Position numbers: made by a program. DNA of 13,460 nt, from the IMG/VR virus record IMGVR_UViG_2671180439_000004, one strand, 5' to 3'. Origin of the DNA: a virus. Its lineage: Duplodnaviria > Heunggongvirae > Uroviricota > Caudoviricetes. Positions 1-6,000 of the stretch are shown one piece after another. Position 1 is the first letter of the stretch. Each line of letters opens with the position of its first letter.

Positions 1-3000
1 CCAGCTGGCGTTTGAGACGTGCAATCTCGGTAGACATCTCCAGTTCACGTTCAGAAGACGTCTGCTGATTTTGCTGTTTACTGCGCCAGTTGTAGAGTTG
101 TGATTCATACAGGCTGAGTTCACGGGCTGCGGCAGTAACACCGATGCGTTCAGCAAGCTTCAGGGCTTCACTGCGAAATTCAGGCGAATGCTGTTTACGG
201 GGTTTTTTACTGGTTGATACTGTTTTTGTCATGTGAGTCACCTCTGACTGAGAGTTTACTCACTTAGCCGCGTGTCCACTATTGCTGGGTAAGATCAAAC
301 ATGTTAAAAATGTTAGAGAACACTGCACAACGGAAGAGACAACCAAGCAGGCTTTGATACTTCCTTTTTTGGACATCCTAGGCTTTAACGCATATGATCC
401 GCAAAAAGTCAAAGCTGAATATGGTGCGGACTTCCCTGGTGTGAAAGTGGGTGAGCGTGTAGATTATGCTCTATTCTGCCAAGGTGTTCCCGTTATGTTT
501 ATTGAGGCCAAAGGTTGTAAAGAAAAAATGGACAACCATTGTCCTCAATTATCTAGGTATTTTAATTCTACTCCTGAGGTGACAATATCAGCAATTACTA
601 ATGGAATTGAATGGCGCTTTTTTACGGATCTCAATGAAAAAAATATAATGGATTCAACGCCATTTTTACGAATCATGATGGATGACATTAAAGATTCTGA
701 TGCTGAGCAATTATTTAGATTCCGCCATGACAAATTCAAACCAGAGGCCCTAAGAACCCTTGCAGAAGAGAGTGTTTATATTTCTGCATTTGTTAAAGTC
801 GTGAGTACAAGCCTTCGGGAAGTAGATCATGAATTTGTTAGATATGTTGCAGGACGAGCAAATATTGGTCGTCAATTAAATCAAAGATTTATAGAAACAA
901 TAACTCCATTGGTGAGGCAGGCCGTAGAGAGGTCAGTAAGTGAAATGGTTGTTTCTGGTCTTTCATCAAGAACATCTATTCCTGAATTAGAATCCCCTGC
1001 TGATGTAACTGAAAATAATGTAATTGATGAGCGCGCAGATATTGTCGATGCAGAGAACCCCAACATAGTAACAACCTATAATGAAAGAATTTTATTTGAA
1101 AAAATCTGTTCTATTATAGGCCCTGCATACGAACTTCAAGCCAAAGATACAGAGTCCTATTACTCTATTCTTTTCCAAGGAAAAACAAACCGCTGGCTGG
1201 TTCGCTATTATGACAAGAAGAATCGCTCAAACATACAGTTACCAATTGATATCAATGAAATAACCGGTAATGAAATTAAAAGAGCCGGACTTGAACATGA
1301 TAACAATCGTATTTTCATTGAACATCCCGAGGATGTATTAAGGATTTCAGGTTTAATCCTTGATTCTTTACAATATGTACAGAATGATGAGAATTTCAGA
1401 AAGCGTCGTCCATAATCATAAAAACACTAGCTTTATTTCACACAAATCCCGCTTATGCGGGATTTTTTTTGACCGCCGACCAACATTAGGCTAAGCCTAT
1501 TGACATGACATTAGGCATAACCTAACATCAAGTGAGTCTGATGGACTATGTCATCTTGGCGGCACCAGTTTCCCCATTGTTTCTGGTTCGCCCTTTTACA
1601 AAAGACATCAGAGCACCACCGAGTGACGTGCCCTAACACAATCCGCCCGAGCGGATTTGCGGCCGCAGGTGCTCTTCTGTGTTGTGTGGAGAACTAACGT
1701 ACCGCCATTGCAGTGGCGGTCCCCCATCAGCAAGAAATTTTAACCAGCTATTCACCCATTCTCATGGGTTGGGTTGCTGCACCCTAAATTTACGCGTTGC
1801 AGAGCGTCAGATGGAGAACAAAAGATGGCTAAGACAGCAAAACAACTGATTAAACAGGCGTACGAAATAGCCAAAACTATGCCACCAGAACAGGCAGCAA
1901 TCATCAAGGAACTGGCTACCGTCCTCGATGTTTCGAATGTAGCTCTGCGCCAGACGCGCACCGAACGTGACGCCCTTCTTGCAGAGGTCAAATCATGGGC
2001 GAAAGAGTGTGATCGCCTGACCGAGCGACACACCAAGAATCGCACAAATATGCATGTTCTAGAGGCTATGCGCGATTTGAAGGCAATTTGCCCCACCAGC
2101 TTCCGTAACGTGGAGGCTCTCTGATGGCTAAAGACTCAAAGCTGGTATATGGCGCGAGTGGCAAAACGAACGTTTTAGCGTTTGAACCTGAAAAACTGCA
2201 CCTGGTTACCGACAAAACGCACCCGCTTTACGATGAGCGTATCCACCTGCCTATCAGCGAGGCAATGGTGCTGAACATCATGGACCAGGGCGTTCTTGAG
2301 CCGATTATCGTCTGGAAAGACCCGGAAACAGGGCTGTCTTGTGTGGTTGATGGTCGCCAGCGTGTGCGCCATACACTGGAAGCCAATAAGCGTCTGTCAA
2401 AATTGGGCAAAGAACCGTTACTGGTTCCGGGAGTCCCTAAACGTGGCTCTGCCATTCGCATGGCGCAGGCGATGGTAAGTGCTAACGAAATCCGCCAGGC
2501 AGATACGCCGCTAGGCCGAGCAAAGAAAATGGCTGATGCGCTGGAGCGCGGGCACGATGAGGATGATTTAGCGCTGATGTTTGGCGTGAGTGTCCAGACC
2601 GTACGCGCAACTCTGTCACTGCTGGATGCCACCCAAGCTGTTCGCGATGCAGTGGAGTCCGGAACGGTCACTGTTACCCAGGCGCGTCAGTTGGCATCGC
2701 TTAAACCCGAAGAGCAACGGGAGAAGGTCAAGCAGATCGAGACAGCGACCGCCGGCACCACGGGCCATGAAAAAGCTCGGCGTCAGCGTCAGATCCTCGG
2801 TGATGCAAAGCCGCGCCTGAAAACCCGCAAAGAAATTACAAAAGCACTCGAAGATGCCAGTGGCGAATATGCCGAGGCTCTGCGCTGGGTGCTTGGGGAG
2901 GCGCAATGAATTTTGAACCTGAGAATTACAGCAAATACACCCTGCGTCGGCTCGCCGCCCTGTTAGATGTGATCTGCTGGGTGCTGATTGCCGTAGTAAC

Positions 3001-6000
3001 CGTTGGTATCTGCATGTTTATTGAATGGTGGACAGCATGAGCAACGTAACCAAACCAACCAGCAAGGGGAAATTTGATGGGGCAGTTGATTACCTCTGCT
3101 CCGATGAGGCTCGTTTTCTGGTTATGCGGGGCGACTATAGCGAAGCAGATATTATCCAAGCGTCTGTATCCCAAGATGTGATTGATGCTGAATGAGTGGA
3201 TGCCGAAGGGTGTGTTTTTCCGCCCTTCCGGTTACTACTGGAAGCCAGGAGGTACTACCGAGAATCTAGCCCCAGCAAACGCTTCTAAAGCGGAGGTTTG
3301 GTTAGCTTACGAGAAAGTCGTTGAAGGTCGAAAAAAACTACTCACCTTTCAACAATTGTGGAAAAAATTTTTAAATAGTGCTGACTATGCAGACCTTGCC
3401 CCCAGGACACAAAAAGATTACCTGGCACATGAAAAATACTTGTTAGCGGTTTTCGGCGATGCAGAAGCAAAGGCCATTAAACCAGAACACGTCCGACGCT
3501 ACATGGATGCACGTGGTAAAAGAAGCCGTGTTCAGGCTAATCACGAGCATAGTTCAATGTCTCGTGTATACCGCTGGGGTTATCAGCGTGGTTATGTACC
3601 AGGTAATCCGTGTGTTGGTGTCGATAAGTTTCCTAAACCCCAGCGCGACCGCTACATAACTGATGAAGAGTACATAGCTATCTTCACTCATGCGACACCT
3701 GCAGTTAAAGCCGCGATGGAAATTGCGTATCTTTGCGCTGCAAGGGTATCTGATGTTCTTAAAATGAACTGGAATCAGATTCTTGATAAAGGAATTTTCA
3801 TACAGCAAGGTAAAACTGGTATTAAACAGATCAAAGCCTGGACTGAGCGTCTTAGTGCGGCTGTGGATATTTGCAGGGAATGGGGACAGGATGGCCCTGT
3901 TATCAGGACAATGTATGGTGAGCGTTATTCATACAAGGGATTTAATGAAGCATGGAGAAAAGCGAGAAACGCGGCTTCTGAAGAACTTGGTAGGCCACTT
4001 GATTGCACCTTCCATGATCTAAAGGCTAAAGGGATCTCAGACTATGAAGGATCTGGCAGGGATAAGCAAAAATTCAGTGGTCATAAGACAGAATCACAGG
4101 TACTTGTTTACGACAGGAAAGTTAAAATCAGCCCCACGTTGAACAAGAAAATGAGATGATTCTTTGGCGTCGGAGCATGCTTCGGCGCTAGAATTTTTCT
4201 CAGTGGATTTTCTCAATTTTTCTCATCGGGATGCAGGTCACTGAAAGGGAATGCTGTAAGTGTTTGAATAGTGGCGGAGAGAGGGGGATTTGAACCCCCG
4301 GTAGAGTTGCCCCTACTCCGGTTTTCGAGACCGGTCCGTTCAGCCGCTCCGGCATCTCTCCGTTCAGATGGTTGCCATGATGCCAGGAAATTTGGCATTT
4401 TAACAGTCCCTGTCCGTGCAATTTTGTTCAAGTGACGAGTTTGCGAGCAAAACGATGATTAAGTGGCCCTGGAAAGTACAAGAATCAGCACATCAAACTG
4501 CCCTTCCCTGGCAGGAAGCACTATCGATCCCCCTTTTAACGGGTCTGACGGAACAGGAACAAAGCAAATTAGTCACTCTTGCCGAACGTTTTTTACAGCA
4601 AAAGCGGCTTGTTCCTTTACAGGGCTTTGAACTGGATTCATTAAGAAGCTGCCGGATAGCACTTCTATTTTGCCTACCCGTTCTGGAGTTAGGACTGGAA
4701 TGGCTGGATGGTTTTCATGAAGTCTTAATTTATCCTGCGCCATTTGTGGTCGATGATGAATGGGAAGACGATATCGGTCTGGTGCATAACCAACGTATTG
4801 TTCAGTCAGGTCAGAGCTGGCAGCAAGGGCCTATCGTTTTGAACTGGTTGGATATACAAGATTCTTTTGATGCTTCTGGTTTTAACCTGATTATTCATGA
4901 AGTCGCTCATAAGCTGGACACCCGTAACGGCGATCGCGCCAGCGGAGTTCCCTTTATTCCGTTGCGTGAGGTTGCTGGCTGGGAACACGATCTTCATGCT
5001 GCAATGAACAACATTCAGGAAGAAATCGAATTGGTTGGCGAGAATGCGGCGAGCATTGATGCTTATGCTGCCAGTGATCCTGCTGAATGTTTTGCCGTAC
5101 TTTCTGAATATTTCTTTAGCGCCCCAGAACTTTTTGCTCCTCGTTTCCCTTCATTGTGGCAACGTTTCTGCCAATTTTATCAACAAGATCCTTTGCAGAG
5201 ACTGCATCGCACTAATGATACAGACTCGTTTTCGGCGACGAATGTTCATTAATTAACAACTTTGCAGATTAATTAACCAATTGAAATGACTTATGAAATT
5301 TAGTGTTGACAGACAAGGTACCGCTAAGTAATATGCGCCCCGTTCACACGATTCCTCTGTAGTTCAGTCGGTAGAACGGCGGACTGTTAATCCGTATGTC
5401 ACTGGTTCGAGTCCAGTCAGAGGAGCCAAATTCTAAAAATTCGCTTTTTTAGCGCAATGTCACTGACCTTAGTTGAACATTGTTTTTTAACGGATAGCGG
5501 GTTTTTAACATCTTAAGCGCCCTCGACCTTTATGGTTGAGGGCGTTTTGCTATGAACGCCATCACCATTTTCCCCTCGATTATAAAACTTGAGTTATTCA
5601 GTAGTCTCCCCTCTTGCAACTCACACTCAAAACTGCCTAACGAAAAGTTATTAATTTTCAATCATATTGCTATCAGGATTTACATTTTTTCGCTGTGCTA
5701 GAAAGGGCGCATTTATGTTAGCTCGTTCAGGGAAGGTAAGCATGGCTACGAAGAAGAGAAGTGGAGAAGAAATAAATGACCGACAAATATTATGCGGGAT
5801 GGGAATTAAACTACGCCGCTTAACTGCGGGTATCTGCCTGATAACTCAACTTGCGTTCCCTATGGCTGCGGCAGCACAAGGTGTGGTAAACGCCGCAACC
5901 CAACAACCAGTTCCTGCACAATTCGCCATTGCAAATGCCAATACGGTACCCTATACCCTTGGAGCGCTGGAATCGGCCCAAAGCGTTGCCGAACGCTTCG

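Follow-up and report, generated by a model that had tools for sequence, protein, structure and literature searches.

Very probable remains of a KpF5-type lambdoid prophage at the serU tRNA gene of Escherichia coli

The stretch of DNA analysed here, 13,460 nucleotides long and in the following called the window (IMG/VR virus record IMGVR_UViG_2671180439_000004), is Escherichia coli DNA and identical to draft contig CXYN01000067.1 of assembly GCA_001268805.1. Next to serU, the gene for tRNA-Ser(CGA), it carries a segment (298–4333) which, judging from sequence comparisons, is very probably the integrase-proximal end (attL) of a decayed lambdoid prophage of the type of the Klebsiella phage KpF5 (OR327748.1). 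A first-pass annotation made from the sequence alone had described an island or prophage at the 3' end of this tRNA gene, truncated on its far side by the insertion sequence (IS) IS3. The evidence laid out below favors a prophage, more specifically a KpF5-like lambdoid one, over a generic island, and it does not support a truncation by IS3, which interrupts an internal phage gene at its codon 13, where a draft contig breaks.

The phage character of the segment is seen in its proteins and in its DNA. All six element proteins match PHROG families, with E values from 1e-23 to 1e-152, and the DNA is colinear with KpF5, a complete 38.3-kb siphovirus genome with terminase, portal, capsid, tail, lysis, Q, replication and Rac-type repressor genes, of which we found no mention in the literature searched. 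Identity to KpF5 amounts to 97.6% over 298–1567, 85.8% over 1740–3044 and 99.6% over 3191–4333, while 3045–3190 have no match in it. The G+C content also changes in steps, being 0.35–0.38 over 400–1400, 0.50–0.585 over 1600–3000 and 0.44–0.47 over the integrase gene int. The compositional mosaic noted in the first-pass annotation is thus present, and the modular assembly proposed there agrees with both the block-wise identities and the G+C steps, which we regard as ordinary lambdoid mosaicism. Among the genes of KpF5, rdgC, the EaA/dATP-dGTP pyrophosphohydrolase gene and a 75-aa DUF4224 gene are absent from the element, and there is no structural phage gene in the window, as had been stated. 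Likewise, the O-like replication gene, Q and the lysis, terminase, portal, capsid and tail genes of KpF5 are missing from the remnant in related genomes.

The exact junction of the remnant is fixed by its attachment sites. KpF5 and the window are identical over 4150–4333 and diverge at 4334, inside the tRNA gene, exactly where a direct repeat in the chromosome stops. This repeat is found in the closest complete genomes; in H1 (NZ_CP145662, locus L001), which differs from the window at 3 of 12,865 positions, the 64-bp block at 4270–4333 recurs exactly, 14,967 bp away and beside yodB (L001:9006–9069), and these are the only two copies of the core in 44 kb. A search for such a repeat had been suggested in the first-pass annotation, together with a comparison with insertion-free strains, which places the junction at the same 64 bp. 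In attL, the core lies between the P'-side flank and the 5' part of serU; in attR, it lies between the yodB-side and the P-side flank. In the attP of KpF5, P' arm, core and P arm are contiguous, and for 40 bp to either side of the core they match the corresponding flanks of attL and attR without a single mismatch. When attB, attP, attL and attR were compared, the core and the matching 40-bp flanks showed 0 mismatches and the non-matching flanks 29 and 31 in 40. The window itself carries attL alone (B-O-P'); the tRNA 3' segment matches there only once at up to three mismatches, in agreement with the earlier statement that it holds no second copy.

The serU sequence is identical to the tRNA gene in genomes with an empty site, with its 3' two-thirds supplied by the phage. 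Since attP bears a 64-bp copy of the tRNA 3' region, integration would have rebuilt an intact tRNA gene, with a second, orphan copy of the 64 bp remaining next to yodB. In RefSeq, this region appears as a 'tRNA-OTHER' of 137 nt (L001:9008–9144), an annotation artefact of the att duplication that joins an orphan 62-nt serU 3' fragment to adjoining phage DNA. Attachment sites in tRNA genes fall into known sublocation classes. Here, the boundary of the block falls within the 5' strand of the anticodon stem, at its fourth base, the pattern expected for strand exchange in the anticodon loop; the exchange is therefore predicted to occur at 4323–4329. The P' arm contains a terminator-like hairpin (4163–4192) and three copies of TTTTCTCA (4195–4202, 4208–4215 and 4218–4225), which has no other copies in the window. 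Two further copies lie in the P arm, and of the eight that KpF5 carries in its entire genome, five are grouped at attP; we infer that these repeats are candidate arm-type Int sites.

On the side away from serU, the segment borders on IS3. Positions 1–297 are identical in 297 of 297 nt to the annotated IS3 of H1 (L001:18643–18939), in reverse orientation, and they comprise both the terminal inverted repeat and the beginning of an orfA matching IS3. Of each IS3 copy, one junction lies on the contig. In H1, PCN061 and KpF5, the adjoining nuclease gene starts with MENFKVRLKNHIEHVKNV; the window lacks its first 37 nt (12 codons and 1 nt), which puts the insertion point after the first nucleotide of codon 13. 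Therefore, the 'AT-rich nuclease gene' of the first-pass annotation is AT-rich as described, but not complete. The distance between tRNA gene and IS3, given there as about 4 kb, measures 3974 bp. At the other end of the window, a second IS3 copy interrupts the 3' end of a glycosyltransferase-9 gene downstream of yeeJ, after 13162. Since the contig ends about 297 nt into one and the same repeat on both sides, these ends represent an assembly break rather than a proven end of the element. The two inverted IS3 copies bracket a 12.9-kb segment with serU, mtfA, asnT and yeeJ, which could be invertible in the source strain.

In H1, PCN061 and 13P484A, whose annotation we inspected, the remnant runs on for about 11 kb, up to the att copy beside yodB. 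This part contains, in order, racR and a divergent cro-like helix-turn-helix (HTH) gene, ymfL and a Dam methylase gene, a rusA fragment and an acyltransferase gene, a 'sialate O-acetylesterase' gene, and finally a partial HTH gene and a frameshifted PolV gene. The 'sialate O-acetylesterase' gene (L001:12062–14056) shares 165 bp, 75% identical, with the tail-fibre gene of KpF5 (20396–22549); its product may be a tailspike with an esterase domain, in which case it would be the sole structural gene left.

The strongest competitor to a prophage that continues beyond the left IS3 is that the element really ends at IS3, everything beyond 298 having been lost to an IS3-mediated deletion that left a 4-kb stump. 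The window's junction between IS3 and phage DNA is indeed absent from all genomes of our survey set, 5426 complete E. coli genomes; the IS3 differs in position and orientation from that of H1; and a second, inverted copy 12.9 kb away indicates that IS3 has been active in the lineage, so that rearrangement is possible. The opposite orientation in H1 is, however, explained equally well by an independent insertion as by an IS3-mediated inversion. Furthermore, H1, PCN061 and 13P484A, near-identical to the window with 2–3 single-nucleotide differences in 12.9 kb, keep the remaining 11 kb or so, and a contig that ends in a repeat is an expected assembly artefact. An exact-protein look-up finds the left junction only in draft contigs of at most 20 kb; there are four others of this kind, and the one inspected (L006) likewise ends in IS3 on the left. 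On balance, a stump appears unlikely to us, and the remainder of the element is likely to lie beyond the left IS3 in the source strain. Of the alternatives left open in the first-pass annotation, degradation is thus borne out, and a remainder beyond IS3 is judged likelier than its removal.

Several points weigh against our interpretation nonetheless. Given the absence of the junction from complete genomes, the source strain may have undergone an IS3-associated deletion or rearrangement, and the far part of the element is known from related complete genomes alone, not from the source assembly. About 6 kb of the remnant in these relatives (L001:9576–16144) have little or no similarity to KpF5, which argues that the ancestor was a mosaic relative of KpF5 and not KpF5 itself. 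Finally, at the position of the second catalytic arginine (Arg-II), the putative integrases of this clade have a lysine.

The last point was assessed by aligning the integrase to lambda Int. The arginine in ARVSD, the lysine in QGKTG, the histidines in FHDL and GHK and the tyrosine in VYDR are all present, while the second arginine is replaced by lysine (HDLK); in FHDLKAK(G), encoded at 4013–4033, this lysine takes the position of lambda Arg311. It is conserved in KpF5, in Salmonella phage 118970_sal3, in BUCT708 and in Pectobacterium phage ZF40 (47% identity), the last of which was obtained from an induced lysogen. Such conservation across the clade speaks for a clade trait and not for decay.

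The decay of the element shows elsewhere. The integrase of the window starts with MLNEW instead of MGRKRAPGNEW, so that int is 5'-truncated with respect to all full-length homologs. All full-length relatives keep a basic N-terminal tail, as does lambda Int (MGRRR), where this tail contributes to the binding of arm sites. In KpF5, BUCT708 and a serU prophage of E. coli SCU-308, a DUF4224 gene directly precedes int, and in ZF40 an annotated excisionase gene occupies the equivalent position. Although none of the literature searched pairs DUF4224 with an excisionase, its place beside int suggests a xis-like role. In the window, this region is taken by the segment 3045–3190, which lacks a counterpart in KpF5 and codes for no more than one half of a phage protein family, and thereby points to a deletion or recombination junction; as we read the sequence, it marks the loss of the xis-like gene and of the int 5' end. 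In the relatives, the remnant carries the partial and frameshifted rusA, HTH and PolV genes listed above. Altogether, the morphogenesis, lysis and replication modules and the excisionase that would define a functional prophage are missing. The lack of an excisionase and the change in the arm-binding N-terminus of Int probably leave the remnant incapable of excision by itself; as the att sites are perfect in the relatives, excision in trans by a related phage is conceivable.

These features also bear on the proposition that the element is an intact small mobile element of about 15 kb, a phage satellite or an island resembling a phage-inducible chromosomal island. In its favor, the relatives contain a 15-kb element with int, a repressor, a cro-like gene and perfect 64-bp repeats, and without capsid genes. 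However, this element follows the gene order of KpF5 colinearly except where parts are deleted, includes fragmented and frameshifted genes, lacks any excisionase, primase/replication or packaging-redirection gene, has a truncated int, and is limited to one near-clonal E. coli lineage. We consider such a satellite very improbable.

A non-phage genomic or pathogenicity island is more improbable still. The serU gene is a documented integration hot spot (PMC7545054, PMC7067040): it hosts a 22-kb TcpC island in the uropathogenic E. coli strains 536 and CFT073 (PMC7545054) and lambdoid prophages in Shiga toxin-producing E. coli (STEC) O145:H28 (PMC7067040). While the missing structural genes of the window might fit an island of the PAI-serU type, all of the proteins match PHROG families, the DNA is colinear and near-identical with a complete phage genome including attP, and no virulence or conjugation genes are present.

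The distribution of the segment leaves virtually no room for the last alternative, that 298–4160 are core chromosome. The whole of 298–4361 occurs in 3 of the 5426 genomes and most of it in about 10 more, such that about 13 genomes, or roughly 0.2%, carry at least 54% of the region. By contrast, 3855 genomes contain a hypothetical empty site as one contiguous sequence, several of them at 100% identity; for this site, the flank on the yodB side was taken from the closest genome and joined, through the shared 64 bp, to the serU 5' part and mtfA. Together with the att repeat in the relatives, these numbers substantiate the earlier view of a mobile, degraded insertion at the serU 3' end and rule out a core segment common to all related genomes. 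In E. coli SCU-308, serU is occupied by an apparently complete prophage with a 330-aa integrase and a DUF4224 gene. For PCN061, the genome paper gives a list of prophage regions but no description of the remnant discussed here.

We therefore envisage, for the decayed KpF5-type prophage, the following course of events. A phage would have integrated into serU by site-specific recombination through its tyrosine recombinase. Deletions would then have taken the genes for morphogenesis, lysis and replication along with the rdgC region, the DUF4224 gene and the initial codons of int, leaving in the window part of the early-left arm (the nuclease, 99-aa and ParB-like genes and small open reading frames, ORFs), the truncated int and the P' arm. 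Later, IS3 would have entered codon 13 of the nuclease gene, and because the draft assembly broke in this IS3, the window stops inside it.

The features of the window are compiled in Table 1. As the first-pass annotation had it, the integrase gene reads toward the 3' end of the tRNA gene, and the latter is followed by mtfA, tRNA-Asn and yeeJ, in the order of the RefSeq annotation of the closest genome. Rfam reports nothing in the whole window besides the two tRNAs.

Table 1. Features of the window, in order of position.
Feature	Position	Strand	Evidence or remark
IS3, left (IRL) end and first 77 codons of orfA	1–297	-	adjoins phage DNA at 297/298; HTH_Tnp_1 domain
HSDR_N nuclease gene, AT-rich	298–1415	+	Pfam HSDR_N, E=2e-14; phrog_4225, E=2e-152
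Intrinsic-terminator-like hairpin and T-run 3' of the nuclease gene	1444–1473	+	consensus scan only
99-aa phage protein of unknown function, first in the ParB-like block	1825–2124	+	phrog_15091, E=3e-63; KpF5 27461–27760
ParB-like phage protein, 261 aa	2124–2909	+	HTH_ParB, E=5e-11; phrog_1033, E=5e-73; TIGR03734; TIGR00180
Hydrophobic phage protein, 44 aa	2906–3040	+	phrog_2936, E=3e-26; homolog in KpF5
52-aa ORF, N-terminal half of its family	3037–3195	+	phrog_28696, positions 1–51 of 102
Lambda-type tyrosine integrase gene (int), 5'-truncated	3185–4159	+	Pfam Phage_integrase; phrog_1; lambda Int structure alignment
Phage-derived P' arm of attL	4160–4269	+	identical to KpF5 attP
64-bp att identity block: 3' 62 nt of serU and 2 nt downstream	4270–4333	.	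exact repeat at L001:9006–9069
serU, tRNA-Ser(CGA), intact	4272–4361	-	ARAGORN and Rfam; 3' end at 4272
mtfA	right of serU		Peptidase_M90
asnT, tRNA-Asn(GTT)	5353–5428		ARAGORN and Rfam
yeeJ	right of serU, after asnT		order as in RefSeq annotation of the closest genome
IS3, second IRL end	13163–13460	+	exact reverse complement of 1–297

Between the terminator of the nuclease gene and the ParB-like block, there is a consensus match to a sigma-70-like promoter (1500–1528; TTGACA, 17-nt spacer, TAACAT), from which the block could be transcribed independently of the IS3-disrupted nuclease gene. To the right of serU, the asnT site (5353–5700) is unoccupied, with yeeJ directly after it; in E. coli SCU-308, the strain with the apparently full serU prophage, a yersiniabactin High Pathogenicity Island with its own integrase is found at asnT (L004:25161–44169). 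The yeeJ gene, which encodes an inverse autotransporter adhesin, is split by a single in-frame stop (TFDL*SSKQ, 8163–8165) into ORFs at 5667–8165 and 8214–12818, and RefSeq likewise annotates an 'internal stop' in yeeJ of related complete genomes.

Within the remnant, the nuclease gene stands out. Its intact form, with the start found in H1, PCN061 and KpF5, encodes 384 aa with an HSDR_N domain at residues 25–128. Homologs are 380–390 aa long and 63–99% identical; in 24 of them, D55, E69 and K71 of the PD-(D/E)xK motif are invariant. RefSeq names the product as a type I HsdR. The HsdR equivalog NF008521, however, scores 14 bits against a cutoff of 729, HSDR_N is the sole domain with no superfamily 2 helicase/translocase motor, and no hsdM or hsdS neighbors were seen in the loci inspected. 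The RefSeq name, to judge by this domain content, overstates the protein. A PADLOC scan of all six proteins and a PDB sequence search with the nuclease returned no match. Likewise, Foldseek found no fold in the PDB at E <= 0.001 for an AlphaFold2 model built from 24 homologs (mean predicted local distance difference test score 69, predicted template modeling score 0.39). Weak hints relate the N-terminal part to the nuclease domains of EcoR124I HsdR and BpuSI and the C-terminal domain to YdhG/DUF1801-like proteins, and we draw no functional conclusion from them.

Within this near-clonal lineage, the gene has been hit in four different ways, one for each sub-lineage with the remnant. In H1, IS3 lies 63 bp upstream of the ATG with a 3-bp duplication, GCC, as expected for an IS3 insertion (L001:18643–19900), and in the window it lies in codon 13. 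In PCN061, IS1 entered near the 3' end with a 9-bp duplication at 1362–1370; OZ547461, with a two-piece match of the same span and an annotated IS1, probably reflects the same event. Finally, 13P484A has an ISKpn26-bounded deletion of 317–1423, and six more genomes share a match boundary at 1427. Besides the window and L001, the loci concerned are L007:14074–14841 and L002:18806–20003. Elsewhere in the remnant, over some 13 kb, H1, PCN061 and 13P484A showed no IS. These recurrent hits may reflect a target preference for AT-rich DNA or selection against the nuclease gene.

The genomic context of the homologs is also of interest. In Morganella, Salmonella and Klebsiella phages, the nuclease gene lies on the same strand as, and directly downstream of, a CI/RacR-type repressor gene, at a distance of 8–31 bp in the Morganella and Salmonella prophages (L013:4306–6155, L014:4306–6155, L015:4559–6155, L016:4559–6155; in KpF5, L003:29374–31176). 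In Haemophilus, it follows a Q antiterminator gene instead. In lambda, the repressor-adjacent position held here by the HSDR_N nuclease gene is occupied by rexAB. On account of this position and of the four different hits, the standalone nuclease might be conceived of as an exclusion or defense nuclease of the lysogen, perhaps costly to E. coli once the prophage had decayed. We regard this as a doubtful proposition; the hits may be neutral, with IS elements attracted by AT-rich, dispensable DNA.

The significance of these findings beyond annotation is small. They establish the 64-bp core as the exact junction of a serU prophage remnant, indicate that a Klebsiella-type temperate phage lineage entered a phylogroup-A E. 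coli clone and decayed there, and correct two misreadings, as an IS3 at a contig end need not be the end of an element and the AT-rich gene does not encode a type I restriction endonuclease. Two leads appear worth further work: the nuclease gene as a candidate prophage defense or toxic gene, and the integrase clade with lysine at the Arg-II position.

Among known systems, KpF5 and related temperate Klebsiella siphoviruses (the Kp4882-3 group, ST101-KPC2phi6.3 and P7641) are the closest. The element shares with KpF5 the integrase gene (99.6% nucleotide identity from codon 9 on), an attP with identical P' arm and 64-bp core, and the gene order RacR-type repressor, HSDR_N nuclease, 99-aa protein, ParB-like protein, 44-aa protein and int. 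It differs in the loss of the first 9 Int residues, in the foreign 146-bp segment at 3045–3190, in the IS3 within the nuclease gene, and in the ParB block, which is only 85.8% identical and thereby indicates mosaic exchange. Like Rac and other cryptic lambdoid prophages of E. coli, it keeps int, a RacR-type repressor gene, a divergent cro/ydaS-like gene and scattered early genes and has lost morphogenesis; unlike these, it sits at serU, has a different int and a Klebsiella-type ancestry, and occurs in only about 0.2% of complete E. coli genomes. With the other elements at serU, the PAI-serU/TcpC island and the lambdoid effector prophages of STEC, it shares the hot spot, while their published cargo, TcpC and type III secretion system effectors, is unrelated.

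With regard to phage lambda, Int aligns with lambda Int over the core-binding and catalytic domains and has equivalents of R212, K235, H308, H333 and Y342. As in lambda, int adjoins the P' arm, and there are three repeats in the int-proximal arm and two in the other; the arm-type sites of lambda are laid out as P'1–3 and P1–2. By contrast, identity to lambda Int is only about 25%, the att site is a tRNA gene with a 64-bp block instead of a 15-bp core, lysine replaces Arg311, and this element has neither Xis nor an N-terminal basic tail. The integration logic nevertheless stays within the lambda paradigm, and the remnant at serU represents an ordinary case of insertion of a well-known type.

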